Position numbers and translations under genes: made by a program
Assembly (NCBI GenBank): GCA_002269645.1
Contig: NIVC01000741.1
Coordinates: forward strand, 186,001 to 250,000
DNA: 64,000 nucleotides
Reading direction: 5' to 3'
DNA from: Macrostomum lignano
Taxonomy: Eukaryota
Shown: positions 90-64,000 of the stretch, piece after piece
Layout of the letters: each line of letters opens with the position of its first letter
Position numbering within the stretch: position 1 is the stretch's first letter
The notes under the pieces: model-generated
What the model was told of the DNA's origin: nothing
What the model saw: the letters and a program-made list of their open reading frames with translations, nothing else
Database searches by the model: none

Positions 90-3000
90 CTAAACCCAAT
101 CTCCTAAACCTAATCTCCAGTGCCCGAACGGTAGACTGTTAATGTTGTCATCAAAAATGAATCTCTTGTTATCTGCACCTGACAGTCCAATCTTATTTTT
201 CTGAATTGTGTGAATAATGTGGTTTTTAGATTGTAGCTTTGAGAACTCATGTGATGTCTTTTTGTTACAATTCAAGGCGTCTCTGTATTCAGCTTCATTA
301 ATTTCCTTCCTAACCACACGTTTCGGAATTCCCTTTGATTTTTTAATTGGGTCTGACGACTCACATTTTACAAAATAGGACTTTGCTCTCAACCCAATGA
401 ATTCAGTGATTATGTCACCAGCAATCTCGTCCTTCATTTTCCCAATCACTTTCTTGTTAGTAGCGTCAAACACTTGATCGCCATTCTGTGTCCTGAAAGA
501 TTCATCATACTCAGACAAGTCAAACAAATCTTTTTGCTGCAGCATGTCCTGATAAATGTTTGAATGTCCATAATAAAACTGTCTGTGTCAGTGTACAAGA
601 GTTTCATTTTATCCTTGTACTGCTGCTTCATGCCATAGAAGAACTGGTACATCAGACGTTTTGATTCGTCGAGAACAGTGACACCTGTATAGATCGGCTT
701 GCGCAGCGTCACCTTGGTTTTGTAAAATATGATCACACCTAAGTAGCTATTAAAGATATGGAGTTCTTTGAATGTTGGCTTTGACATATTTGCCTGAATA
801 ACAGCAGGCTCTGATGAGGTAACAAGTTTCAGGTTTGTTCTTTTCCGCTCATTCTCAAGAGTCTTGCCATAGACAGAGTTGTTGGCTAACTTAAAGAGGT
901 TCTTGTCAAAGTCGTTGGTTGCTTTGGTCCTAAACTGGGTGTTCTTATCAATGTAGGGTTTCATCCACGCGTCCTCTGTAAATGTAAGAGCCCTGTGAAC
1001 TATGGTGACCCTACAACCAAGTGAGATAAAATACTGAAGCAGTTTGTAATGGATTTTGTAACGTGTTTTGTTGTTTAGATTCTGTGTTAGTTTCTCTGTA
1101 TGTTCTTTTTCTGTTCCTGACAGGTGCCAAGTTCCATTATTATCATTGGGAGTTTCGATTATTTTCGGGCACTTAATATTCTCTGGGAAGGGTGGAAAAT
1201 CAGAGAAAAAGTCGTGAAGCTCTGGTGGAATGTAAACATCAACTTCATAAATGGCAGCCAATGAAAAGTCCTGTTTGAATTCTGATGAGGGTAGCCATCG
1301 AAAATCTCTAACTGGAAGATCTTGACTCATCGCCCACCCGTAGAGATTATTAGCGTCCAAGTAAGTAATGTAGTTTGAGGGCTGCTCCTTATTGTAAGAT
1401 CCAATGTAGGGGTTGTTTGCTTTTGCATATCTATGGGTGCAAATTGAGATTCCCCCTCGCTTTGACGATTCGACAAAATTGTACATGTCAATGTCTGTAA
1501 GAAGTTCAATGTACCAATCTGGATCTTGATCCCATTTCATTTTAAGCAAAGATTCCCAGCTAGTGGCAGGCAGAGACACATAATGTGCTGGATCGAGGCC
1601 ATATGCTGTGTACCAGGTGTATCTGAAGGTTTCAAACACATCGGCCAGCAGAAACACATCTGTGAAGAGGTAAAGCAGGTGATACTGGAAGAAGTTTTGA
1701 CAATTAAAGTAATTATAGACATGCTTCGCGTGCTCATAGTCTTTGTCAGAGATTCCAGAGTCTGTTAGCTTTGAAAAGAACTTCTCCTGTGGTGGTAAAC
1801 CTTCTTCAAATACGTGATACCCAGTAATATTTTCATAGGGGTAGAAGCCTTTGGTTCTCAGGAGTTTAAATGATTCATCACTGTTGTTAATTTTACTTGC
1901 AAACATCTTTGTATATGTACATTGTTCATCTTTTAGATTCTTGCTTAGTTCGTCTAGACTGGCAGCTAGAAATTGATATGAATCCTTCAGTCTTATTTTA
2001 CCTGTACCCGAATTATCCTGTTTAATATCAACACACTTAAACTTCTCCTTGTTCTCTGCGATGCAATCAAGGTGTATGTCTGGAATCATGCCAATTTTTT
2101 CAACTATTAAATGCATGTCATAGTTCTTTGCGTTGTGACAAAATATCGTTAGATCATGAATGTTCGATTATAGCTTTAGATTACAGGTGTTATGCGCTGC
2201 ACCTCTAAATTTCCCAGTAAAGTGGCAGTGGTCCCTAACGGTGGGGTTTTTAACATCAGTGCAAGTTAAATGTTTCCTGCAGATGTGGCAATGAGTTGCT
2301 GATAGGAAATTACGTTCATCCTCCTCAGTCATCATTATTGGAACAGGTTGAAGGGTGCTAATCACTTTTTGCAACTCTAACATTCTGGCAATAAACTGCT
2401 CCACACACTGCTCTCCAAAGAAATAATTATACTCAACAAGTCCTTTTGTATTAATAAAGGCATATGCTACTGAATTGGGGACATGTTTTTGAGTTTGAGT
2501 TTGTTTTTGAGTTTGAGTTTGTTTTTGAGTTTGTTTTTGTGTTTCCGGCATGATTGAGCATTCGAAATCAGCATATACAACAAATGGGAGCTTCTCCATC
2601 TTGTGATAGTTCTTAAACCGGAGATATTTCTCTTCAGCTGAAGGAAGAGAGCAGTTAGTGGGGTGATCCTCGCATGATAATTCATGCTCTGTTAGTTTTT
2701 CAAAGCGTTCAGGTCCACTGTAATGCTTAAGGCACAAGCGGCAGATGGCAACAGCCTCGTGATGATTATTCAACTGCTTGTGAATGAGTCTTGAAAGATC
2801 TTTAATCCAAACATAGTGAGCCTCCTCTAGTAAATTACCAATCACTAGAAGATCCACCTCAATCCGCCTTTTCCCCTCAGGATCTAAAACGTCTTTGCTA
2901 CATCTGACCAGTTGAACTATCTCAGTTTTTTCACTCCACTCAAAGACTGTGATTCTAATTTTGTTATTAAACACTTCTTCTAGCTTTGGGATCTGAGAAA

Positions 3001-3943
3001 TCGCCAAGCCTCCTTTGTCAAACCTGATTCCCTTCTTTTCGCATTCGATGAGATAGTAGTTGAAATAATTTTGATAATTTGAGGTTCTTTCAGGGTGGTG
3101 AGGTACACTAATAAGTGCAGAAAGAACTGCCCATAGAGCACAGCAATTGTCTTTATTTTTAACATTTATGCAAGCTTTTTTGCCGGCTAGCTTATGCGGG
3201 AGCTCTATATAAGAGGAGGCTTTAAGTGGGTCATATTTCATGACCATGACAGTCGCTCTTTGAATCCCTCCCACGACCCATCCGGAACCTCTGGATGTAA
3301 ACGCTTCAATTTTCTTAGTGACATCTTGAAGGAAAGGATCCAGTGTGTCAGTAGGGGTGAATGGCTTCGATTTTGTTGTCATGTAATACTCGAGATGCTC
3401 AGTGGGTTTCGCAGGCATGTAAAACGCAATCTTGAATGATATCTGTAGTTTAAAGGTTTTGCGTGTTTTGAGTGTGTGATCAACAACTGATTGGATGCTG
3501 TCTTTATAGTCGTAGATGTTTGCGGTGGTATCCTTAATTGGGATTGTGTACTCTATGTAATGTTCTGTAAACTTCCTCTGTGCAAAATTAATCTCTTCAA
3601 TGGCAAGCTCCGACTCTTTTAAATGGATTAATTGCTCTAATTTCTCTTGTTCCTGCTTATTTTGTGGGTACTTTGCTTTTTCACCAGTGAGAGTTTCGTA
3701 TTTGTTAACTAAGTTGCGACTCCTCTCTTGGTGTTCCTTTGCAGAATTTTTTATAGGCGCATACTGGTTGGATTCTAATTGATTGATGATTTCCAACTGT
3801 TTTTCATAGCTTCCCAGGTGACCAGGGTCTGTGTTAAACGTTTGTTTACATGCTTCTCTTAGTAAATTACTTTTGTCTTGAAATAAGACGCCTTTTGAAA
3901 AATATTTGTTGACTAAATCTCTTGCTGGATTGGCTTTTGGCAT
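90..3943 (-). pseudogene. polB: Protein-primed family B DNA polymerase (about 1280 codons), disrupted by an in-frame TAA at 2168-2170 and a frameshift near 556-562
   Basis: Read through, the ORFs 2168..3943, 446..2116 and 90..545 give: a papain/vOTU-like segment (KDNCCALWAV...HYVWIKDL), ExoI VYADFEC, an endonuclease VII-like zinc module (CHIC...RDHCH...HNTCN), ExoII HNAKNYD right after the stop, and polymerase motifs DANNLYG, KLANNSVYGK, YTDTDS and LRAKSY. Confidence 0.93.
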
Positions 3944-4067: not shown

Positions 4068-4526
4068 TCACATGCGCATTATTGTAAACCCAGCATTGTG
4101 CAGTGTCATGATGGCTTTGACAATGTCAGACTTGCTTACAGAATTTTCATGCTCAAAATCATCACGATCGGGGCAGCCCTCAGGGCAACCATCTCCTGCC
4201 TTAATTGTTATACCTTTATCTCTTGCAATCTTTTGCAATTCTAGCTGGTGGGCTCTATCACTCCCAGCTTTAACAGCAGTTGCTACACCTCCAGCTACAC
4301 CACCTGCGGCACTTACAGCGCCTGCAATGATCGGAATAAGAGCTGCTAATGGTAGGATTCCTCCTGACTTTTCATCTGTGATACTGTGTCTTTGCTCATT
4401 ACACTCAACTATTTGCTGTGTGGGATCAACCTTAACTTTGATACCTTTAATTGAAATAAGACCTGGTTTCTTTGATTCAATGATTTTATTGAGTTTATTG
4501 ATGGTTCTGGTTTCAATCTTTGTCAT
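4068..4526 (-). CDS. Small Polinton protein with an adenovirus pX(mu)-like hydrophobic segment
   Basis: SGG-ILPLAALIPIIAGAVSAAGGVAGGVATAV resembles the adenoviral pX precursor motif GG-(F/I)LP-LIP-IAAAIGA; flanked by integrase and polB. Confidence 0.6.
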   Translation of the reverse strand: MTKIETRTINKLNKIIESKKPGLISIKGIKVKVDPTQQIVECNEQRHSITDEKSGGILPLAALIPIIAGAVSAAGGVAGGVATAVKAGSDRAHQLELQKIARDKGITIKAGDGCPEGCPDRDDFEHENSVSKSDIVKAIMTLHNAGFTIMRM

Positions 4527-4543
4527 TTTTTTATTTTAATATT

Positions 4544-5581
4544 TTAATTAATTTCCGTGTCAGCTGGTATCACTAGGAGTTCAGCTCTAGTGAATGACCG
4601 TGTGGGGGATTTAGGGTTAAAGGCCTGAGATAAAAAGTAATAGTCACTGGAGTCGGAGGTAAAATGTCTGTCTATTTTATGTACATCAAGGCTGAAGTAT
4701 GGATCTGTAGCTCTTCTTTTGGTGTCTTTCTCTAGCTCTCCAGGTAGATATAAAAAGCGTAGAAACTCAGAGTTTGTCAGTATGTATGGTGATTCAACTC
4801 CTGGAAGCTTAGGGTAGTTCGAGGTGTGTTTTGTGTTGTGTGTGTTGTGTGGGGTTGTCGTGTTGTTGTCTGTTTTATGAGATGCCTTAAGTTCGACAGT
4901 GTCTTGTTTAATTGCATGGGACGGTTTCAATCCAGTCATACGTGTGACTTCATTGTTCAGTTGCTCTATAACAGTGGGGAGCCGGTCTGTCCATTTTGAA
5001 TAGTACTGACCACTTTTTAGTTTCAGCTCCTCAGCTGTCTGCTTAGTGAATAGCCTCTTGGCTAGAGTTAGATTGAATCTCTCAACGTACGCTTGGTCTC
5101 TGTGCAAGTTTGTTCTGCCATAGCGAATCTCTGTATTGTGCTTTTCCATAAGGGATTTCACTGCACCCATGAATTCCTTACCCGGGTCGGTCATGAACAT
5201 TTCAGGGTAACTAAGGGGTGAGTTTTTATAAATATCTTGCAGTGCGCTGGCAACAACCTCTGACTTCTTCGTCTTGAGTGGGCGAGCTTCCTTATATCTG
5301 GAAGCAACGTCTGTAATTGTAAGAGCATACTTGTAGCCCGAGTCATTGGGGAGAAACAGAAGATCTGCTTGGTGCGCCTCATTAGGTTTATAAATACTGA
5401 AATGGGGCCTTTCAAATTTTACTGGTGGGAAATAGACTTGAAAGACAGCCTGCTTAGAGAGCCATTTTTCTACTGTAGCTTTTGGTTCCTTACTCAGCTC
5501 CATGAGTTTACTAACGGCATTTTTGCCTACAAAGAATCCTTTGTCGCTGTAGTAGAGTTTTTTAAGTTTCTGATCTGTCAT
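4544..5581 (-). CDS. Retroviral-type (rve) DDE integrase of the Polinton, 345 aa, intact
   Basis: HQADLL, TITDVASRY, MTDPGKEF and QAYVERFNLTL give the D,D,E triad typical of Polinton integrases. Confidence 0.93.
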   Translation of the reverse strand: MTDQKLKKLYYSDKGFFVGKNAVSKLMELSKEPKATVEKWLSKQAVFQVYFPPVKFERPHFSIYKPNEAHQADLLFLPNDSGYKYALTITDVASRYKEARPLKTKKSEVVASALQDIYKNSPLSYPEMFMTDPGKEFMGAVKSLMEKHNTEIRYGRTNLHRDQAYVERFNLTLAKRLFTKQTAEELKLKSGQYYSKWTDRLPTVIEQLNNEVTRMTGLKPSHAIKQDTVELKASHKTDNNTTTPHNTHNTKHTSNYPKLPGVESPYILTNSEFLRFLYLPGELEKDTKRRATDPYFSLDVHKIDRHFTSDSSDYYFLSQAFNPKSPTRSFTRAELLVIPADTEIN

Positions 5582-5611
5582 TTATTTAAAAAGAAAATTT
5601 TAAATAAAATA

Positions 5612-6112
5612 ATGCAGCGCTCTGGTGGTAAAATAGATTCACATGGACTGATAGAAAAGCTTCCTCATCCAAACAAAGGCTGGACACTTCCCGGCTATAA
5701 ATATTGCGGGCCTTTGAATCCACTTGAAATACAGTTAGATACAAACGATAATCCAAATCCTGGGCATGAGCCTGTGAACGAGCTAGACTCTGTGTGCATG
5801 TGGCACGACGTTAAATATAGAGATTTTCCTGAGGAGAAGAATCGCTGGGACAAAGAAATGCTTAAGAGACTAGACAATATAGGGGCTTCAAGCGGATTTC
5901 GTGAGTCGATCGCTCGGAAGCTAGTTAAAGCTGTTATTTTTAGTAAGGCAAAACTGGGATTAGGAATGGGCGCCGAGGGTGGGTGCTTGGGGAGAGAGGG
6001 CTGGTGCACGAGGAGAGAGGGCGGAGGCTCAGGAGCGGGGTTTGTTTTGTGCGCACCTCACAAGGTACTAGGAAGACTGCTGAAAGAGCTGGGGGTAGAG
6101 AGAGCAGAATGA
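5612..6112 (+). CDS. Parvovirus VP1u-type phospholipase A2 domain protein (PLA2X-like), 166 aa
   Basis: LPGYKYCGPLN Ca-binding-loop-like motif and NELDSVCMWHDVKY catalytic HD. The first plausible ATG is at 5612; the track's 5369 start overlaps the integrase antisense. Confidence 0.85.
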   Translation: MQRSGGKIDSHGLIEKLPHPNKGWTLPGYKYCGPLNPLEIQLDTNDNPNPGHEPVNELDSVCMWHDVKYRDFPEEKNRWDKEMLKRLDNIGASSGFRESIARKLVKAVIFSKAKLGLGMGAEGGCLGREGWCTRREGGGSGAGFVLCAPHKVLGRLLKELGVERAE

Positions 6113-6214
6113 TTCAAGTGCCTCAAGTGGTTGGAAAGAAAACCTTGCGCGAAAGCTTGTAAAGGGGATTATATGGGAGTGGGAGAGACGGGATAGGGTG
6201 GTCTAATTCCGGCG

Positions 6215-6310
6215 TATTTATAGCAACGAAAAGGGTTTTCCTTCTAGAATTCTGCTTCTAGAATATTCTAGAATAAAAAGAGAATCCCACGCCTTCCAAA
6301 GCTATAAAAG
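6215..6310. promoter_or_regulatory. Heat-shock-element cluster flanked by divergent TATA boxes
   Basis: cTTCtaGAAtaTTCtaGAAt at 6255-6274 (four alternating nGAAn pentamers); cTTCtaGAAt at 6241-6250; TATAAAAG on + at 6303-6310; TATAAATA on - at 6222-6215. Confidence 0.7.
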
Positions 6311-6392
6311 CGAATCATAATCCTCGTCTGGGGGTTATGCGCTAAATTCACTATCAAGTCTATCGACAACGATTGCCACAATTTTCACAACA

Positions 6393-7172
6393 ATGAGCAA
6401 CATTGAGAAAACAATCGAGAAATTGAAGGAGCTGCATGCGAAAAGTGATATTTCGCTTGCGGAGGCGTTAGCGTCTTGGTCGCCGGAGGAGCTGAAGAAG
6501 TTTAAGGAGAAACTTGACAAGCTAGAAGAAGATGGAAAAAACAAGAGTAAAAAACATAAAAGGAGACCAATGAATCGCAATGCCGACAACGAGCAGGAGA
6601 CATTCCTACGAAATCTCAAACGGAGGCTCACTGATCTGGCCGCAAAAGGTCTTCGCATTGACGGTGGCCTTCTTAAGACGCTGCTGTCCAGCCTAGGACA
6701 AGATCTACGGAATAAATCTAGCGAAGAGGTCCGCAGTATATTTGTGACCATTTCGGACTGTCTGCGGCCGCTAGACAACTTAAAAAGCCTAGGAATGTTC
6801 GAGCAGGCTCGGGCAATCGTCTTCAGTACGAAAACTAGGCCTATCGAGAAGATTGCGGAGGAATTCGGATTGACCGTCCGAAAGGCGAAAGAGTATGTAG
6901 CGTACTACGAGCTAGCGATGCGTTACATAGCTCTGCCATTTACTGGATATTGCCTTACAACGATTTTGAAATACAAGAAGGCAATCGTCGATTTTGCCAA
7001 GGACGACGAAGAACTTCGTCTGGCCTTGGAAGTTGAGCATGAGACGTTCGAATACGTAAACGAAGAAGGCGTCACAGCCGAGATTGCCCTGACCAATTGG
7101 GCCGTGGACGTTCGAGACGACCCAGGTGACGAAGTAGATGACCCAGGTGACGGAGTAGATGTCATGGAGTGA
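6393..7172 (+). CDS. Orphan 259-aa protein with a basic NLS-like patch, an HTH-like segment and an acidic tail
   Basis: Uninterrupted ORF with TATA upstream and AATAAA at 7241-7246; KNKSKKHKRRP, TRPIEKIAEEFGLTVRKAKEYVAYY, DDPGDEVDDPGDGVDVME. No family recognised. Confidence 0.7.
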   Translation: MSNIEKTIEKLKELHAKSDISLAEALASWSPEELKKFKEKLDKLEEDGKNKSKKHKRRPMNRNADNEQETFLRNLKRRLTDLAAKGLRIDGGLLKTLLSSLGQDLRNKSSEEVRSIFVTISDCLRPLDNLKSLGMFEQARAIVFSTKTRPIEKIAEEFGLTVRKAKEYVAYYELAMRYIALPFTGYCLTTILKYKKAIVDFAKDDEELRLALEVEHETFEYVNEEGVTAEIALTNWAVDVRDDPGDEVDDPGDGVDVME

Positions 7173-7332
7173 AGAAGTGACTACTACATGGCCGTCTGTT
7201 GTGTTTGAAATGGTGATTTATATAAATTGATTAGTCGTTAAATAAAAGCCTGCTTATAATTATTAAAATAAATAATAACTGAATCAACAAAATTCGGTTT
7301 TTTTTGTTAATTGGAATCTGACTCGACACGTT

Positions 7333-7890
7333 TTTTTTACCTACTACTAGTAGAAGTAATAGTTCAGAGTGAATATCTTTAGCGACAGAAAATTTCAATT
7401 TACGAAGCTTCGTAAACTCTTTAATGAAAAAACAGAAAATACTAAAATATGTTTTTAACCTACTGCTAGTAGAAGTAGTAGTTTAGAGTGAATATCTTTA
7501 GCGACAGAAAATTTCAATTTACGAAGCTTCGTAAACTCTTTAATGAAAAAACAGAAAATACTAAAATATGTTTTTAACCTACTGCTAGTAGAAGTAGTAG
7601 TTTAGAGTGAATATCTTTAGCGATAGAAAATTTCAATTTACGAAGCTTCGTAAACTCTTTAATGAAAAAACAGAAAATACTAAAATATGTTTTTAACCTA
7701 CTGCTAGTAGAAGTAGTAGTTTAGAGTGAATATCTTTAGCGATAGAAAATTTCAATTTACGAAGCTTCGTAAACTCTTTAATGAAAAAACAGAAAATACT
7801 AAAATATGTTTTTAACCTACTGCTAGTAGAAGTAGTAGTTTAGAGTGAATATCTTTAGCGATAGAAAATTTCAATTTACGAAGCTTCGTA
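7333..7890. repeat. Tandem array of about 4.7 x 119-bp units, each with the palindrome TTTACGAAGCTTCGTAAA
   Basis: tacgaagcttcgta starts at 7401, 7520, 7639, 7758 and 7877 (period 119); units nearly identical; the last palindrome is truncated. Confidence 0.95.
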
Positions 7891-8074
7891 AGCATACAAA
7901 AGACAATCAAGATTCAAAGAAAATTTAGATTTTTTTCAAAGGGTAAGGACCCTGCGCTGATGATTTAAAGTTTTAGGGATCTGGTAGCACGTTGCGGATT
8001 GAATGTGGGGAGAAGAATTCAGATTATTTTCTGATTGTTTCGAAGATGTTATGGGTGGATGTTGGTGGATTATG

Positions 8075-8380
8075 TAGGACACCTGCTATGCTCTGATTCT
8101 GTCGTGGAGGAAGGAGGATAGGTTAGGAGGATTATGGATGACGTTTTGTGAGCGAGTTTTTCTGATTCTGTCAGGGATAATATGGATGGATTTAGGAGGA
8201 TTATGTTCGAAGTTTTCGGAACAAGTAGGACACCTGTTATGCTCTGATTCTGTCAGGGATAATATGGATGGATTTAATGGGATTATGGAGGACGTTTTGT
8301 GAGCGAGTGCGACCCCCCTTTTTTTCTGATTCTGTCAGGGATAATATGGATGGATTTAGGTGGATTATGGAGGACGTGAA
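8075..8380. repeat. Imperfect subterminal direct repeats
   Basis: ctgattctgtcagggataatatggatggattta occurs three times (about 8162, 8244, 8326) plus a partial copy; gacgttttgtgagcgagt twice; gtaggacacctg twice. Confidence 0.8.
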
Positions 8381-9060
8381 AAATTTTGTCCCAGAAGCCC
8401 CCTCATGCCTTCTACTATGTCTAGTCTAACCTAGTTCTAATCTAGTATAGTTTTTAATCTAGCCTAGTTCTAATCTAGTCCAGGATTGTCTATAGACTGG
8501 ACTTGAAATTCCGACTGGAAAAAACCCTGCGGGAAACTTCAACGAGAAAAACTCTCGCGGGGAAATCTCTGCGGGAAACTTCGGCGAGGGGAGGCGTAGA
8601 TGGTTGGCCATACCGGTGTGATCTAGAGAGACAATCAACTCTTAATGGCGAAAAAGGCGTACACTCTGTCAAGTTCATGCAGATGAATTATATTGTACAT
8701 GTAAAATCCAAAAATGAAACTCACCAAACTGACACAGACCAGTAGAAGAAAATTCCACCTCTTTTTCATAATATCAGACGCGGTGCTGCAGTTTGCGTTC
8801 ACTTATACCCTAAATGAGGGGTTCAAAAGTCGGTTTTTTCTTGCTTAAATGTCCAGGCCACAAGTGCGCGCAGCATTTGTAAAACAATGCAGCATTGTAC
8901 GCTTGTAATCAAGATATTTGTAGGCAAATTTCTTGTGCATGAAATGAAGGATTATTATTTAAACCACTTTAAAGCTCACTTTCAGGGAGGTTATAGACAG
9001 ATTTTATTTTGTGGGATTTTATTGATCACTTTCCCGGACATATTGCAAGGATTATATAGA

Positions 9061-19445: not shown

Positions 19446-19781
19446 GTGCAGAAAAGTCAGCAGTCGGTCACTCAGACAGCAGCAGACGGTCACTCAGACA
19501 GTCAGCAGTCGGTCACTCAGACAGCAGCAGACGGTCACTCAGACAGTCAGCAGTTGGTCACTCAGACAGTCAGCAGTCGGTCACTCAGTCAGCAGTCGGT
19601 CACTCGGGCAGCAGCAGTCGGTCACTCAGACAGTCAGCAGTCGGTCACTCAGACAGTCAGCAGTCGGTCACTCAGACAGTCAGCAGTCGGTCACTCAGAC
19701 AGTCAGCAGTCGGTCACTCAGACAGTCAGCAGTCGGTCACTCAGACAGTCAGCAGTCGGTCACTCGGGCAGCAGCAGTCGG
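19446..19781. repeat. Degenerate 20-23-bp minisatellite (cagcagtcggtcactcagacagt) overlapping the Clock stop codon
   Basis: Direct inspection; the unit nearest the gene supplies the TGA at 19760-19762. Confidence 0.9.
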
Positions 19782-20518
19782 TCAGCACCGTCGTTAGTTA
19801 CAGAATGAGCGGCAGCCGCGGTGGCCTCAGCCGTCGCAGGTGTCGTGGCAGCGGCCGACAGCATTGCAAGCTTTCTGCTGACATCCTCCAGTTCTTCCTG
19901 GTTGCGCCTAACAGCGGCTGACAGCTGGCTGTAGCGGGCGCACAGCTGGGCGTAGAGCTCCGCCTGCTGCGGGCTGAGCGACTCGGCGGCGGACAGACCG
20001 ACATGCGCGGCTGCAGCTGCAGCGGCGGCGGCCGCGGCGGCAGCATTGTCGGCATCGTTGCTGGTGTCGTCGTCGTCCCAGATGCTGCCACCTTCCGCGG
20101 CGGAGTCTGTTGGCACCGCCGAAGACGAGGAGGCCGTCCGTGAGGCCTCAGGCGCAGCGGAAACCGCGGCAGCAACGGCAGAGCCAGTAGCGGCAGCGTC
20201 GGCGGCAGCGGCGCGGTGGTCGGCAGAGCCGTAGACGCAGGTGTAGGACTCAGGCCGGCCGCTCCACTGGGCATAGTTGGCGTGGGCGGACATGGACAGC
20301 CACAGCCAGTCGCCGCTGGGCAGGACGTGACGGCAGGCGTGGCAGACGGCGAGGCCGTCGCGCTTCAGACGCTCGAGAAAGCCGGCAACCGTTTCCAGGT
20401 CGGCCGGGTGGCACAGGTCGAATCCGGAGCGGCCAATCAGGGCGCTGGAGCGCTGGCCAATCACAAGCGAGCAGCGCGGATCCACTTCCGTGAAGCGCCA
20501 GGCTAGGCTAAGGCGGGC
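19760..20518 (-). CDS. Clock: Clock/NPAS2-like bHLH-PAS factor, exon 4 (PAS-B and exon-19-like coiled coil)
   Basis: RLSLAWRF...SGFDLCHPADL...WLWL...YAQWSGRPE matches CLOCK PAS-B (RHSLEWKF, SGYDYYHVDDL, YHQWNSRPE); QLSAAVRRNQEELEDVSRKL resembles the CLOCK exon-19 helix; acceptor tttcaacag, phase 0. Confidence 0.82.
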   Translation of the reverse strand, partial: ARLSLAWRFTEVDPRCSLVIGQRSSALIGRSGFDLCHPADLETVAGFLERLKRDGLAVCHACRHVLPSGDWLWLSMSAHANYAQWSGRPESYTCVYGSADHRAAAADAAATGSAVAAAVSAAPEASRTASSSSAVPTDSAAEGGSIWDDDDTSNDADNAAAAAAAAAAAAAHVGLSAAESLSPQQAELYAQLCARYSQLSAAVRRNQEELEDVSRKLAMLSAAATTPATAEATAAAAHSVTNDGADRLLLPE

Positions 20519-20658
20519 CTGTTGAAATGGAGAGCACAGCATCATCTTGGTTGACATTAAAGTGGAAGCCGGTACCAGACAAATTGAATGAAGGCGGCTA
20601 TCAGGCTGAGCTAAAAGGGAGGGGGGTCAGCGGAGGCGGGGTCAAGCTGAGCTCAAAC

Positions 20659-42952: not shown

Positions 42953-44455
42953 ATGACACCAATGATGTTCCTGGTGGCACTACTACTGCTGCTGGCGCTA
43001 GGCATGGACACGCATCAAAAGATCTTTAGCAATCGCGGCCATTCTCTTACCGGTATCTCTGCCAAGAAAAAAATTATCTCTGACACAGTGCCGGCGACTA
43101 TTGACAACCCGCTGCCGTCGGGTGCCTGCGGCGCCTACAGCGAGCTCCGCAGCGTGAACTTCCTGCACAAGTCCATCAGCGAGAGCATCTGCGAAGGTGC
43201 CGCCGCCTACACCATCGTGGACAGCGCGTTTCCGCTGTGCCGACTTAAGCAGCACCTGCCGCCGGTTCTCACTGAAGGCGTCAGAGTTGCAAGTGTCCAG
43301 ACCTTCATCAGAAGCCCCCTCACCCAGAGAAACCTCTCTAGCTTTGTCTATGTCTACTCAAGTCCCGACTTAATCTCGAACATCATCCGCACAGAACACA
43401 TCTTCGAGAAGAGAAACATCCGCATCATGCAGCAAATTATTCGAAAGCTGGCCGCCAAGTCGCCCGTCACCTTCATGGACATCGGTTCGAACATTGGTGT
43501 GTTCAGCCTGCCGATTCTCGATCTCGGAGTGCCCGTTATCGCTCTGGACGCAAACATTCGTAACCTGATTAGACTCAAGCTGTCAGCCGAGGCGGCCAAG
43601 GCGAGCGAGGTGGACAGCGCGTTTCCGCTGTGCCGACTTAAGCAGCACCTGCCGCCGGTTCTCACTGAAGGCGTCAGAGTTGCAAGTGTCCAGACCTTCA
43701 TCAGAAGCCCCCTCACCCAGAGAAACCTCTCTAGCTTTGTCTACTCAAGTCCCGACTTAATCTCGAACATCATCCGCACAGAACACATCTTCGAGAAGAG
43801 AAACATCCGCATCATGCAGCAAATTATTCGAAAGCTGGCCGCCAAGTCGCCCGTCACCTTCATGGACATCGGTTCGAACATTGGTGTGTTCAGCCTGCCG
43901 ATTCTCGATCTCGGAGTGCCCGTTATCGCTCTGGACGCAAACATTCGTAACCTGATTAGACTCAAGCTGTCAGCCGAGGCGGCCAAGCTGCCTCACAAGC
44001 TGCACCTGCTGTGGAATTTCGTCAACAGGCAGGTGTCGCTCATGTACCTGAACTTCCCGAAGGAGTGTAACATGGGTGGCGCCACCAAGTTAGGCAGGGC
44101 CGTCGTCGACACGATACCGGTGATGTCGGCGACCGCGGACTCCATCGTGCCGCTCGTCGACACCAAGCTGGTCGTCATGAAGGTCGACATTGAAGGAGGC
44201 GAAGGCGAGTTTTTCAAGAGCGCGAAGAAGCTGTTTGACAGCTTCACGATTCCCGTGGTGCACATGGAGTGGCTGAAGAGGCACATGAGCGATATGGAGC
44301 GCCAGTTCATGATCAGGTTCTTCTATGAGAGGCGCTACAGCCCGAGGAGCATGAACGATCTGACGAAGTTGATCAATATTAACCTCACAGGGTATGAAGG
44401 AGACGACCTTGTTTGGGTGCACAAGCACTTCGAGGATGCAGGCATACTGCTCTGA
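42953..44455 (+). CDS. FkbM-family SAM-dependent methyltransferase with an N-terminal membrane anchor and an internal tandem duplication
   Basis: Hydrophobic MMFLVALLLLLALG; motif I FMDIGSNIGVFSL (twice); VMKVDIEGGE. No introns; start may be the ATG at 42953 or a splice acceptor near 42923. Confidence 0.85.
   Translation: MTPMMFLVALLLLLALGMDTHQKIFSNRGHSLTGISAKKKIISDTVPATIDNPLPSGACGAYSELRSVNFLHKSISESICEGAAAYTIVDSAFPLCRLKQHLPPVLTEGVRVASVQTFIRSPLTQRNLSSFVYVYSSPDLISNIIRTEHIFEKRNIRIMQQIIRKLAAKSPVTFMDIGSNIGVFSLPILDLGVPVIALDANIRNLIRLKLSAEAAKASEVDSAFPLCRLKQHLPPVLTEGVRVASVQTFIRSPLTQRNLSSFVYSSPDLISNIIRTEHIFEKRNIRIMQQIIRKLAAKSPVTFMDIGSNIGVFSLPILDLGVPVIALDANIRNLIRLKLSAEAAKLPHKLHLLWNFVNRQVSLMYLNFPKECNMGGATKLGRAVVDTIPVMSATADSIVPLVDTKLVVMKVDIEGGEGEFFKSAKKLFDSFTIPVVHMEWLKRHMSDMERQFMIRFFYERRYSPRSMNDLTKLININLTGYEGDDLVWVHKHFEDAGILL
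43217..43987 (+). repeat. In-frame tandem duplication (384 bp + 9-bp filler + 378 bp) inside the methyltransferase
   Basis: 43217-43600 and 43610-43987 appear identical except for a 6-nt indel (tatgtc); filler gcgagcgag. Confidence 0.95.
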
Positions 44456-46072: not shown

Positions 46073-49000
46073 TCACAGTTTGTAGTTAATCACTGCGTCT
46101 CGCGCTCTTCTCGGGTGTCTGCGCATTGCGATTGACTCGCCGCCGTCTGCTTCAGCGGGACCCGCGCTGGCTGGCGGCTGGCCGGCCGCTGCTTCAGGCG
46201 GATGCAGCGGCTGTGAAACCGGCCGGATGTGCACCAGGTGACGCATGCACGACTGTCCTTGCCTTTGCAGAGTGAATGTGTCGCCTTTGACGGACTCGAC
46301 CACCCAGGGTTCCAGTTCGAACGGGGTGTGCAGCTTGGACTTGTTCTGCCGTCGAAGGACTCGGTCACCCGGCCGGATGCTGTGCTGTCGAACCCGCTTG
46401 GTCTTGTCGAAGCCGGCCTTCATGTTGTCGTTGTAGCGGTTGTGCCGGTTCTTGATGTCACTGGTAGACCAGCTGGCTCGCCGTGATGGTCTGACTGATG
46501 GAATGACGTCGTTAACTCTGCGACCCATCAGAAGTTCAGCCGGCGCTTTGCCTGTGGCTCTGTGCGGAGTCACCCGGAATGCGAGGAGCCACTCATCCAG
46601 CGCCTCTTTCCAGCAGCGACCTTCAGCGATAGCGGCTCTGACAACTTTGTTCACTGAGCGATTGACGCGTTCGGTGGCACCGTTGGCTTCAGGATGCAGC
46701 GGGCAGATGAGGCGGTGTTTGACGCCGAACGAGGTCAGGAAAGCGCGGAACTCGTGCGAGCTGAAAGGCGGCCCGTTGTCTGTGATCAGCTCCAGCGGGA
46801 CCCCGTGGCGGGCGAAGAGCTGTCGTATGTGAGGAATAACTGTTGCTGCTGATGTTGAGCTGACGTAGTTGATTTCAGGATATTTAGAAAACAGGTCCGT
46901 CGTGACGAGAAGCATCTGTCCTTGGATGGGCCCATAGAAGTCCATTACTAGCAGGAGCCAGGCCCCATCCGGGATCTTTGTAGGCCTCAGCGGCGCATGG
47001 TAGGTAGCGTGGGATGTGGCCTGACATGGCAGACACGCTTGAACGAATGCCTCGCAGTCGGCTCGAACCCCTGGCCACCACACCTTGGTCTGCAGCCGCT
47101 GGAGTGTCCGCTCGGCGCTGAGATGTCCAGTGTGTGCCAGTGCTAAGACCTGCCGCCGCAGCGATGAAGGCACGACGATAAAGTCACCGCGGAGTAGAAC
47201 TCCGTCGCTTTCTGATAGCTCGTGCTCGATTCCTTTGAAGGTTCGCTGTGTACTGCTGTGCTGGTTCCAATGCTGCGTCTTGATGCCGGTGATGGCAGCC
47301 TGGATGTCCATGTCGCTTCCGGTAGCTGTTTTGAAGTCTTCTAGAGATAGACCGCGGGGGACAGCACTTTTGACCACTGCGTTGATGTAGGTGGCGTCCA
47401 GAGTTTCACCGATAGCACGAGACAGATCTGTTGGCATCGGCTGTCGGCTTAGAAGGTCCGACGGGTTCGATGCGCCGGGCCGGTATTCGAGCTTGAACTG
47501 AAGATGTTGGATGCGGAGCGCCATTCGCTCAATTCTCGGCGGCGGCCGTGAACCCGGCTTAAAAAGCGGGATCAGAGGCTTGTGATCTGTGACGATGGTA
47601 AAATTCGAATTGCCAGCCAAGTAGAAGTCGAACTTAAGGCAGCCGAATTTTACGGCCAAAGCCTCGCGCTCTATTTGTGAGTAGCGCTGCTCAACTGGAG
47701 TCAGAGTTCGACTGGCGTAGGCGACGGGCCTGACGGTGCCATTCGGTTGCTTCTGGCTGAGAATTGCGCCCAGTCCGATTGGTGAAGCATCGACGACAAG
47801 TTCTGTGGACCGATTGCAATCAAAGAAGGCCAGCGTTTCTGGCTTGCTGATAGCGCTTTTCAACGCGTTGAAGGCCTCTGCATGCTGAGTCGTCCATTCC
47901 CAGCGCTTGCACTTCTTGGTTAGCTCGCGCAGTGGGGCTGTCAGGTCGGCGAAGCTCGGGATGAACTTTGACAAATAATTCGCCAGTCCCAGGAAGGACC
48001 GAGTCTCGGATGCGTTGGTTGGTGGTCGAAAATCCTGGACTGCTTGGATTTTCTCAGCTGGCGCCGAAATGCCCTTGGCCGATAATGTAACGCCGAGGAA
48101 GCTGATGGAACTTTTGGCGAACTTGCATTTTTCCGGGTTGACCGTGAGTCCACACTCTAAGAGCCTAGTGAGGCAGTCGTCAAGGCGCTGATTGTGCTGC
48201 TGCATACTGTCCGCATATATGATGACGTCATCATGGATCCACCGGACTCCGGGGAGGCCGCTGAGCACTCCTGACATGATCCGCTGCAAGATTTCAGAGG
48301 CACTTGTAAACCCCATGCTCAGTCGCTTTAGCCGCATCAATCCGATGGGGGTGCTGAATGTGAACAAGTGTCGGCTTTCTTCATCCACCGGTATTTGGTA
48401 GAATGCTTTGCAGATGTCCAGCTCGCTGAATAGGGTTGCTCCGGCCATCTCTTCTGTGACCTCGTCCAAGGTGGGTATGGCTTGCTTTTCCGGGATCACA
48501 AATTTGTTGAGGTCTCGAAGGTCTTGGCATATTCTGACGCCTCCAGACGACTTCGGTACAACGACCATGCGAGACACCCACGGTGTGGGACCGGTTACCG
48601 GCTCGATGACGTCTAAGTCCAGTAAACCCTGCAGCTCTTTTTCCACTGCTGTCTTTAGGTGGACCGGAACTCGGGCTGGTGGATGGCAGACCGGGATGGC
48701 ATCTTCTTGGAGTCGCACTGATACCTCGACGCCTTTGACGCAGCCGAGCCCTGTGAAGACATTCTTGTGCTTCTGCAAGACTGTCCTCAGTTGTGGATCA
48801 TTCGGAAGGTTTGCTTCGACAGCGCTGACGTCGGAGAGCTGCTTCGGCCGGCGAATTTCGAGCAAACCGAGTTCAAAGGCGGCCTGGCGCCCGAGTAATG
48901 TGGCACCCCGCCCTTCCATCACGTAGAACGGCGTCTTGCAGCAGTTCTTGCCCACGGTGATTACAAGATGCGACATTCCTTTGATGTTGAGCGGGGCAGA

Positions 49001-49750
49001 TGCGCCGTACGCCTTGATGACGCGGTTGGTATGGAGAAGTTGCACTCCGTGGAGCTTCTTGAATGTCTCATCGCTCATGATGTTGCAGCTGGCCCCGCTG
49101 TCTACCATCATATCTAGAGGCTCACCTCCAACCAGGACTCGCACTGTCACATCTTCTGGGTACTGCACCCGGTCAGCGGGCAGAGTGAAGACGTCCTCAG
49201 TAATGCTCTCGTCGGTGTAGAGAATTTGTGCTTCTTCAGTTGAAACAGAGTTCACTGTCGAATATCGAGCCGCGCCTCCGTTGCCAAATGGTTCGGTTTT
49301 CCGCAGTTGCTGCAAGTTTTGCCTCTAGCAGCTTCACAGTTGCTGTGGCCGGATTCGCCGCATCTGTAGCAGGTGAGGGATTGACTTGTTGATTGTGGTG
49401 GGCGGTCCAAATGACTTCTTCTGTTTGGCTGTTGTTGCCGATGCCGTTGCCGTTGCGTGGTGCCTTGCTGGCTGATAGCAGCGACGGTCGAGTCCTTCGA
49501 TTGCTCGATTGCGGTTGCTTGCGCTTCTGAAGCTTCGTGGGCTCTCGCACACTTGAGAGCGTCGCTGAGCGAAATGTCAGATTCTCGCAGTAGTCGGCGA
49601 CGAAGTGCGTCAGAGAGGCAGGTGGCGACCAACTGATCACGAATGATGGAATCTCGAAGTTCTCCGAAGTCGCAGGTGTCAGCGGATGCTTTCATCCGAG
49701 CGTACCAGTTGTCTATGGTCTCTCCCAGCTGTTGTGCTGCCTGCCAGGCC
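46073..49750 (-). mobile_element. Gypsy (Mag-like) element with 5'-truncated gag and an intact 1080-codon pol; no LTRs found
   Basis: gag GETID...DTCDFG and two zinc knuckles; protease VDSGAS; RT IHDDVII; RNase H DASPIGLG and TDHKPL; integrase HHCC plus D, D (TDNG), E (ERVNR); gag-pol frameshift near 49290. Confidence 0.9.
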
Positions 49751-61849: not shown

Positions 61850-62285
61850 CAAGACTGCAAGCATCCACCAGATAGCAAGCATCCCCAAGATGGCAAGCAT
61901 CCCCCAGATAGCAAGCATCCCCCAGATAGCAAGCATCCCCCAGATAGCAAGCATCCCCCAGATAGCAAGCATCCCCAAGATAGCAAGCATCCCCAGATAG
62001 CAAGCATCCCCAGATAGCAAGCATCCCCCAGATAGCAAGCATCACCCCAGATTGCAAGCATCCCCAAGATAGCAAGCATCCCCCAGATTGCAAGCATCCC
62101 CCAGATAGCAAGCATCCCCAAGATAGCAAGCATCCCCCAGATAGCAAGCATCCCCCAGATAGCAAGCATCCCCCAGATAGCAAGCATCCCCCAGATTGCA
62201 AGCATCCCCAAGATAGCAAGCATCCCCCAGATAGCAAGCATCCCCGAGATAGATAGCATCCCCAAATAGCAAGCATCCACCAGAC
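61850..62285. repeat. Satellite B, homogeneous array
   Basis: Direct inspection. Confidence 0.93.
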
Positions 62286-62394
62286 AATAAGTAGCTAGTG
62301 CGACAATTTCCTTAGCATTATAGCGGCTCCTTTAAAATTCGCTTACTTTTACGTTTGAAATTGTGTATCTTTTATGTTTGATACGGTGGCTTTT

Positions 62395-64000
62395 CAATGT
62401 CTGACATAGTGGCTCTTCTATGTTTGACATGGGGGCTCTTCTATGTTTGACATGGGGGCTCTTCTATGTTTGACATGGGGGCTCTTCTATGTTTGACATG
62501 GGGGCTCTTCTATGTTTGACATGGGGGCTCTATTATGTTTGACATGGTGGCTCTTTAATGTTCGAAATGGTGGCTCTTTAATGTTCAAAAAGGTGGCTCT
62601 TTTATGTTTGACATGGTGGCTCTTTAATGTTTGACATGGTGGCTCTTTTATGTTCGACATGGTGTCTCTTCAATGTTTGACATGGAGTCATGTATATGTT
62701 TGACATGGTGGCTCTTGTATTTTTAACATGTTGGCTCTTTAATGTTCGACATGGTGGCTCTTTAATGTCTAACATGGAGTCACGTATATGTTTGACATGG
62801 AGTCATGTATATGTCTGATATGGTAGCTCTTTAATGTTTTACATGGAGTCACGTATATGTTTGACATGGTGGTTCTTAAATGTTCGACATGGTGGCTCTT
62901 TAATGTGTTACATGGTGGCACTTTCATGTTTGACCTGGTGGCTCTTTAATGTTTGACATAGTGTCTCTTTAATGTTTGACATGGAGTCATGTATATGTTT
63001 GACATGGTAGCTCTTGAATGTTAGACATGGTGGCACTTTCATGTTTGACCTGGTGGCTCTTTAATGTTTGACATGGTGGCTCCTTAATATTTGACATGGT
63101 GACCCTTTAATATTTGACATGGTGGCCCTTTAATGTTCGACATGGTGGCTCTTCAATGTTCGACATGGTGGCTCTTTTAGGTTTGAAATGGTGGCTCTTT
63201 AATGTTTGACATGGTGGCTTTTTAATGTTCGACATGGTGGCTCTTTTATGTTCGACATGGCGTCATGTATATGTTTGATATGGTAGCTCTTGAATGTTCA
63301 ACATGGAGTCATGTATATGTTGGACATGGTGGCTCTTTAATGTTTGACATGGGGGCTCTTCTATGTTTGACATGGGGCTCTTCTATGTTTGAAATGGGGG
63401 CTCTTCTATGTTTGACATGGGGGCTCTATTATGTTTGACATGGTGGCTCTTTAATGTTCGAAATGGTGGCTCTTTAATGTTCAAAAAGGTGGCTCTTTTA
63501 TGTTTGACATGGTGGCTCTTTAATGTTTGACATGGTGGCTCTTTTATGTTCGACATGGTGTCTCTTCAATGTTTGACATGGAGTCATGTATATGTTTGAC
63601 ATGGTGGCTCTTGTATTTTTAACATGTTGGCTCTTTAATGTTCGACATGGTGGCTCTTTAATGTCTAACATGGAGTCACGTATATGTTTGACATGGAGTC
63701 ATGTATATGTCTGATATGGTAGCTCTTTAATGTTTTACATGGAGTCACGTATATGTTTGACATGGTGGTTCTTAAATGTTCGACATGGTGGCTCTTTAAT
63801 GTGTTACATGGTGGCACTTTCATGTTTGACCTGGTGGCTCTTTAATGTTTGACATAGTGTCTCTTTAATGTTTGACATGGAGTCATGTATATGTTTGACA
63901 TGGTAGCTCTTGAATGTTCGACATAGAGTCATGTATATGTTTGCCATGGTGGCTCTTTAATGTTAGACATGGTGGCACTTTCATGTTTGACCTGGTGGCT
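62395..64000. repeat. Satellite D, 23-bp unit (gacatggtggctctttaatgttt)
   Basis: Period 23 (gacat at 62403 and 62426), continuing to the window end. Confidence 0.95.

Follow-up and report, generated by a model that had tools for sequence, protein, structure and literature searches.

We found that a block of about 120 bp inside a Polinton of Macrostomum lignano is homologous to the core promoter of a host cytosolic hsp90 gene (hsp90a). Sequence comparison points to a copy of this host core promoter which was probably captured by the Polinton family and placed before an accessory gene, ORF259, which it would drive rightwards via the host heat-shock factor (HSF). The stretch of DNA analysed (the window) is 64,000 nucleotides long, and the features discussed below are listed in Table 1. 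The initial annotation had described a heat-shock element (HSE) and TATA layout in this region; this layout is real, but its origin had been missed, the whole block being a homologue of the host hsp90 promoter.

Table 1 Features of the Polinton and its promoter cassette, with positions in the window
Feature	Position	Strand	Basis or remark
Protein-primed polB	90-3943	-	PF03175, E 2e-15; three separate ORFs in this copy
pX-like core protein	4068-4526	-	PF05829, Pfam scan
Integrase (rve)	4544-5581	-	PF00665, E 3e-9; start codon 30 nt from divergent PLA2 start
PLA2-domain gene	5612-6112	+	PF08398; other copies diverge at ~6105, the cassette boundary
E2F-type octamer GCGCGAAA	6147-6154	-	Outside the hsp90-derived block; subfamily A only
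Promoter block homologous to promoter of host cytosolic hsp90 gene (hsp90a)	6209-6328	+	103/117 aligned bases identical
Box GTATTTATAG, contains leftward TATA	6214-6223		Probably what remains of, or a deletion junction in, the hsp90 CTAAAAATAG (MEF2-type) box
Leftward TATA TATAAATA	6222-6215	-	18 nt before two-unit site
kappaB-like GGGTTTTCC (putative)	6233-6241	+	Offset +19 from box, as GGGTTTCCC in hsp90a
Two-unit HSE	6241-6250		Identical in hsp90a promoter
Perfect four-unit HSE, alternating pentamers	6255-6274		Motif scan; core positions kept across copies
TATA box TATAAAAG facing ORF259	6303-6310	+	28 nt past HSE; aligns with hsp90a TATA
ORF259, 259 aa, accessory gene of large unannotated family	6393-7172	+	Helical; predicted HTH at about residues 134-216
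Two AATAAA signals after ORF259	7241, 7267 (7241-7272)	+	Sequence scan
Tandem repeats, 119-bp unit	7333-7891		Between cassette and TIR
Right terminal inverted repeat (TIR)	7901-8416		517 bp, 99% to left TIR at G000:C741:174100

The element is a full-length Polinton of 20.3 kb (G000:C741:174100-194416), the right part of which lies in the window. It has the hallmarks of a Polinton/Maverick: polB with an integrase, a packaging ATPase (Pox_A32, E 3e-6) with a C5-like cysteine protease (Peptidase_C5, E 3e-4, just under its cut-off), and long TIRs with AG..CT termini and a 6-bp TSD (ATGTCT, at 8417-8422). The gene labels originally given to polB, pX, integrase and PLA2 hold on Pfam scan. The ORFs left of the ATPase are candidates for the capsid genes; a Pfam scan of one of them gave no match. 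Between the protease and polB a Ty3 element is inserted, and an uninterrupted Ty3-type gag-pol ORF of 1312 aa was observed at this place (L089:5764-9702). The integrase and PLA2 genes start divergently (5581-5612), and because these starts are only 30 nt apart the promoters of integrase and PLA2 must each overlap the other gene.

The four-unit HSE is the only run of at least three units in the 64-kb window and is still the sole site when one mismatch is allowed, in agreement with the initial remark that no other such HSE was noticed there. It is not a chance occurrence: the analytic expectation is 0.011 per window, and none of 60 order-3 Markov simulations produced a four-unit run. Genome-wide, the four-unit pattern was found 526 times vs 107 times for the reversed control, a five-fold enrichment. 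The TATA consensus and the degenerate E2F site are common when taken alone, with 63 matches (either strand) and 14 matches in the window, respectively. The layout at 6255-6310 is the canonical one, with at least three alternating nGAAn units upstream of a TATA box, and the host encodes HSF (7 PF00447 matches over the cut-off). The four-unit HSE, the two-unit site, both TATA boxes and the E2F octamer all lie where they had first been placed.

The similarity of the block to the hsp90a promoter extends beyond the common HSE motif. Aligned to this promoter, positions 6209-6328 gave a score of 142, while a null distribution in which the 34-nt HSE block was fixed and the flanks were shuffled gave 84 ± 6 with a maximum of 111 (0/2000 reached 142). 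The promoters of two hsp70 genes and of hsp90b scored 51-66 against the window. One assembled contig which matched only the HSE block prompted a search with a 29-nt pattern spanning both HSE sites; this gave 30 genomic matches vs 0 for the reversed control, comprising 22 Polinton cassettes, 4 hsp90 promoters and 4 other loci. At the four hsp90 promoters the HSP90 ATG lies 208 nt downstream, the protein being identified by PF00183 and HATPase. With the hsp90a promoter as query, at least 36 non-hsp90 loci were found (40 of 85 candidates were scored), matching at 83-89% over 113-132 nt (E 3e-36 to 4e-28). The hsp90-derived block is re-used before a number of divergent ORFs and stands in either orientation to the integrase: it precedes members of the ORF259 family, intron-bearing members, a 207-aa ORF and another ORF, and it is these that the loci found with the hsp90a query face.

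The host hsp90 (hsp83-type) promoter contains the same box, kappaB-like site, 2+4 HSE, spacer and TATA as the Polinton block. In the Polinton copy, erosion has affected the upstream box, the gap between HSE and TATA is 11 nt shorter (28 nt in the ORF259 cassette vs 39 nt in hsp90a) and the ORF which this copy would drive is not a chaperone. GGGTTTTCC, a putative kappaB-like site, was probably inherited from the hsp90 promoter.

A 501-nt query gave 40 scored places, 30 of which were fetched and compared. The whole region is present at 96-100% in 5 of these copies (subfamily A), whereas the other 25 match only to ~6105, at the end of PLA2, and continue into at least six other kinds of sequence; no HSE of at least three units was found in the 1.5 kb fetched to the right of PLA2 in these 25 copies. 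Because they diverge after ~6105, the HSE is part of a cassette together with ORF259 and the polyA signals, and not of the conserved integrase-polB core. The initial annotation had made its reading depend on the HSE repeats not being unique to this copy, and they are not: the HSE has four units in 4/5 of the near-identical copies and three in the fifth, and it also stands before distant paralogues.

The upstream DNA of the ORF259 family was scored, wherever the N-terminus was present, in 39 stretches around ORF259 genomic matches and in the left neighbour of the window. Subfamilies A, B (L051-53, L066) and C (L062-64, L085) have a 2+4 HSE with a TATA before the ORF, within ~210 nt of the ATG (2+3 in two members of B), and their proteins are mutually 26-28% identical. 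Subfamily D (L058, L067, L087) has a different four-unit HSE before TATTTAA and subfamily E has two HSE units only, while in the scored upstream DNA of subfamilies F, G and I and of the L071/L074 and L014 types no HSE was found. As so many members are without one, the HSE is not essential to a gene of this family. In subfamily C the cassette is inverted, so that the ORF lies between the HSE and PLA2/integrase and the HSE is ~2 kb from the integrase. Promoter type is scattered over the ORF259-family protein tree, and the exchange of promoters is therefore much younger than the divergence of the ORFs themselves. Recombination has a hotspot in the cassette region, where mosaics are common, and in many hsp90-type cassettes the ORF is broken.

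The initial annotation had proposed that HSE conservation be checked across copies. In 13 copies found through protein or whole cassette (5 A, 4 B, 4 C) and aligned to hsp90, 1/18 GAA/TTC core positions varied vs 32/56 non-motif positions (Fisher P = 7e-5); the comparison against hsp90a gave 1/18 core vs 39/72 other positions, and 26 loci found by blastn gave 1/18 vs 21/72 (P = 0.03). For subfamily A alone the same contrast gave P = 0.07. The HSE cores are thus preferentially conserved among copies, with the caveat that these P values are optimistic because the copies are related and non-independent. The spread of the block may reflect recombination between copies without benefit.

A second, unrelated HSE-TATTTAA promoter was present at 14/14 matches of its own search, several of them directly right of PLA2 and facing a 225-aa distant member of the ORF259 family. 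None of these 14 matches has an identified host gene, which leaves this promoter with no host donor among them. That an unrelated promoter with an HSE of its own also took this slot points to HSF input as such.

ORF259 has 79 genomic matches, with paralogues ~25% identical. A profile search of public proteins gave 77 relatives, of which the named ones are Macrostomum lignano gene models and the distant ones are proteins from metagenome and run assemblies; a single-sequence search gave 0 relatives among 1552 candidates. The AlphaFold2 model is helical (pLDDT 89), and residues 134-216 repeatedly matched the HTH domains of KorB, Spo0J, SopB, ParB and VirB at Z 3.6-5.0, below the caution level of Z 8; the best structural match was KorB (8qa8: Z 5.0, rmsd 3.1, 78 aligned). 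This likeness to KorB/ParB/Spo0J/SopB would fit an HTH with a helical bundle behind it but is below a reliable Z, and no ParB CTPase domain was seen. Foldseek with the model gave nothing at E ≤ 0.001 in the pdb and viral collections, a PDB sequence search gave nothing under E 0.16, Atlas matches were nameless or weak, and nothing convincing was found in Pfam and PHROGs for 13 and 55 family members, respectively. The viral contigs around a distant relative added no context. A candidate DUF3102 identity was rejected, with no DUF3102 match in Pfam. The 207-aa ORF is marginally related to ORF259 (hhalign E 0.38; profile E 0.0016). A DNA-binding regulator is the likeliest identity of ORF259 on the predicted structure.

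It is likely, judging from the promoter, that host heat-stress signalling would switch ORF259 on. Host HSF would bind the four-unit HSE at 6255-6274, transcription would run rightwards from ~6330 to the AATAAA at 7241 or 7267, and a basal activity would be raised by heat or proteotoxic stress; we consider this course of events fairly probable. Contigs from 4/4 run assemblies (presumed RNA) cover parts of ORF259, and one such contig begins at 6258, inside the HSE; with strand, start and level unreadable, these contigs were given no weight as evidence. What the product would do is more tentative: ORF259 could regulate the promoters or termini of the element itself, a reading to which we give somewhat less than an even chance, and the element genes may be induced indirectly through it. 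In M. lignano itself, 4/6 HSE-bearing LTR families are strongly heat-induced and 2/6 are not, with more than 250-fold induction and a reporter response which is abolished by mutation of the HSE (PMC12801592, consulted in part).

The block may instead have been captured and spread mainly as a strong, ubiquitous hsp90-type basal promoter, with any heat induction modest and incidental. In the consulted table of PMC12801592 the Hsp90 clusters stand at log2FC 13-14 and 1.2-1.4 after heat shock, and the Pfam score differences which separate hsp90a from hsp90b (+3.1, -1.0) match those separating the weakly from the strongly induced type (+3.5, -0.8). The donor hsp90a is on this basis tentatively the constitutive, mildly inducible Hsp90 gene, the score differences being taken across Pfam versions, and since such a donor is only weakly induced the benefit may lie less in heat induction than in strong basal transcription. 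The hsp90 promoter of Bombyx is strong and ubiquitous, and a 108-bp fragment of it without HSEs is inactive (PMC4455783, consulted in part). However, this reading differs from capture as an HSF-responsive promoter in degree only, and a second, unrelated promoter which also has an HSE took the same slot; we regard it as a possible but distinctly less probable account. It should be noted that 0/10 cassette proteins were present as exact sequences in the public collection, so the cassette proteins are not tied to rows of the published expression table, and that the motifs of the hsp90-derived block are absent from the consulted sequence files of PMC12801592.

For a capture from the host, we infer from context and promoter grammar that the direction of transfer was probably from host to element. 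The 10-kb hsp90a locus had nothing else in common with three Polinton copies. The motif order of the block recurs in the paralogue hsp90b and an HSE with CTAAAAATAG is found in 16/18 intronless hsp70 promoters, and the promoter grammar is therefore host-wide; a host grammar and an hsp90a locus without other Polinton DNA make host-to-element transfer likely. The promoter tree is not strong enough to tell which way the transfer went, and although the hsp90a and hsp90b promoters are similar (score 69 against 35 ± 6) this is no proof of descent, because an hsp70 promoter scores 75. The reverse, a block born in a mobile element and exapted by host hsp90a, is in our view unlikely. The block is far commoner in elements than in host genes, the four other loci hold 69-78 nt of it with no gene identified, and Helitrons supply HSEs to Caenorhabditis genes (PMC6927752, consulted in part), all of which would suit such an origin. 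Against it stand the bare surroundings of hsp90a and the grammar common to the hsp90b and hsp70 promoters. Subfamily A and hsp90a also have in common an upstream 10-mer and other diagnostic bases which are absent from B and C, as expected if hsp90a holds the fullest version of the block.

The initial annotation had proposed that the HSE, lying between divergent TATA boxes, would co-induce a regulator on one side and integrase, pX and polB on the other. As a stress switch this stands in part, since the HSE is real and present in several copies and the host has HSF genes, but the bidirectional part is mostly unsupported. A second, leftward transcript which the HSE of subfamily A would drive, passing antisense through PLA2 to reach integrase, pX and polB, is, in our estimate, improbable, and a little more so than the reversed transfer. 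TATAAATA is a perfect consensus in 5/5 subfamily A copies, the E2F-type octamer lies ~40 nt downstream of the would-be leftward start, and the two genes start so close together that the integrase promoter has to be placed inside or past PLA2. However, the leftward TATA at the box is found only in A, and hsp90a, B and C lack it: with equal spacing to the HSE, CTAAAAATAG stands in hsp90a, CTATAAATAG (a TATA in the opposite orientation) in subfamily C and further variants in others, so that the site is a homologue of the hsp90 box. In subfamily A the tail of the box is joined to the upstream hsp90 10-mer, which creates TATTTATA, and to judge from this junction the leftward TATA most likely arose as a side effect of a deletion within the CTAAAAATAG box that is specific to this subfamily.

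Other copies point the same way. Among 8 clusters of sequence right of PLA2, made from 49 partly redundant locus records with full PLA2 matches (loci such as L241-247 being excluded), an E2F site with a nearby leftward TATA occurs in A only; a reverse TATA stands at 548 nt in one of the other clusters. The inversion in subfamily C puts an ORF between the HSE and the integrase, and 25/30 copies sharing integrase-PLA2 have no HSE of at least three units in the fetched stretch. The leader of the leftward transcript would run 609 nt antisense through PLA2; it would contain four upstream ATGs, and an AATAAA precedes the integrase ATG by 5 nt. No divergent core promoter conserved to the left as well as to the right of the activator sites was found. 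In the consulted parts of PMC12801592, a polB + endonuclease VII cluster of M. lignano transcripts is up after heat shock (log2FC 2.8, baseMean 4.4, FDR 0.01), though it is not assignable to this family, another polB-type cluster is lowered, and PLA2, A32, C5 and pX clusters are missing from both the up and the down DE list; two up-regulated integrase clusters, which have neither a zinc finger nor a protease domain, are not assignable to an element. The leftward TATA may have newly gained a function in subfamily A.

Least probable of all is that host promoter DNA was acquired once and spread by recombination with no function. In its favour, the cassette region is a hotspot with mosaics and broken ORFs, and factors other than function could keep the palindromic TTCTAGAA repeats unchanged. 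Against it, the conservation is specific to the HSE cores, there is in every case an ORF at promoter distance ahead of the block, and a second, independent HSE promoter occupies the same slot.

We know of no established account of how Polintons are switched on. Transposons bearing HSEs are already known; what appears to be new here, judging from the literature searched, is the Polinton, together with a traceable host donor re-used across divergent genes. The HSE-bearing Ty3 LTR retrotransposons of M. lignano likewise have a canonical HSE upstream of a TATA, acquired several times independently, but in these the LTR drives the whole element and no donor was identified, whereas the Polinton cassette has a traceable host promoter (PMC12801592, consulted in part). 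The terms polinton, maverick and hsp90 gave 0 matches in the whole text of that paper. ONSEN/COPIA78 and other Brassicaceae COPIA elements show a similar repeated recruitment of the host heat-shock factor by a transposon, in their case through a retrotransposon LTR (PMC5059998, consulted in part); 'captur', 'acquisition' and 'host gene' had no match in the text of that paper. The Helitrons of Caenorhabditis, like the Polintons, are DNA transposons with many HSE copies genome-wide, but their HSEs flow from element to host genes, in contrast to the flow from host gene to element proposed here (PMC6927752, consulted in part). The origin of the HSEs is not traced in the consulted parts of these three papers. 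In the open-access literature searched, no report was found of an HSE in a Polinton, of a traceable host donor or of hsp90 promoter capture, and the initial remark that no such description for Polintons was known holds within the same bounds.

Host stress is the trigger of prophage induction, as for CI and SOS in lambda. The likeness to the Polinton would be an analogy of function only, in which a host stress factor acts on an element-encoded regulator; no repressor cleavage, operator or downstream induction was observed for the Polinton. A more far-reaching and doubtful possibility is that a modular stress-sensing slot beside the Polinton terminus has been repeatedly loaded with host stress promoters (hsp90, the second HSE promoter and AP-1-type promoters), before fast-evolving HTH regulators which would control the replication or integration genes. 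If true, this would be the counterpart in an animal endogenous virus of prophage induction, by way of a stolen host chaperone promoter. As the donor can be identified base by base in the host hsp90 promoter, the block gives Polintons a concrete, testable regulatory input, and a widespread unannotated HTH-like family is flagged as candidate Polinton regulators. For M. lignano transgenesis exists, as does a public heat-shock 3'-end RNA-seq set, E-MTAB-14939, which compares 20 with 37 °C and is named in PMC12801592.

Several further features of the cassettes were observed. Several family members without an HSE (L054, L083, L084, L038, L082, L090) have upstream AP-1-type TGA[CG]TCA sites and a common TGACTAAC motif; among 7 matches of the AP-1-type promoter no host donor was found. 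Many cassettes (L217-L224, L076) have a conserved ORF of 79 aa which separates the hsp90-derived promoter from the terminal repeat, and several loci with this ORF look like short non-autonomous derivatives. Some ORF259-family members (L153, L204, L206) have an apparent spliceosomal intron with a GTAAG donor after about codon 95-105, which is unusual among Polinton genes. The four loci with part of the hsp90 promoter block (L142, L143, L163, L150) are non-Polinton loci and have 69-78 nt of it without the TATA; one lies just after the ORF of a transmembrane protein and one before an inverted-repeat insertion with telomeric repeats.

On the host side, CTAAAAATAG is described as a MEF2 binding sequence (PMC4117452, consulted in part). 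It lies beside HSEs in 16/18 hsp70 promoters and in both cytosolic hsp90 types (L106-L123, L166, L186), and the remaining two of the 18 intronless hsp70 promoters have a one-base variant of it. A literature search for CTAAAAATAG with heat shock found no published report of a host-wide MEF2/HSF promoter grammar. Both hsp90 promoters have kappaB-like sites on the flanks of their HSE. The genome contains tandemly expanded Rel-homology-domain genes, with 24 matches and up to 10 per contig (G000:C109, C475 and C1505; L230-L233). Elsewhere in the window are a PAS-domain exon (19760-20557), an ORF for an FkbM-like methyltransferase of 500 aa (42953-44455), a Ty3 pol ORF (46073-49111) and a 23-bp satellite array of ~60-70 copies (62250-64000).
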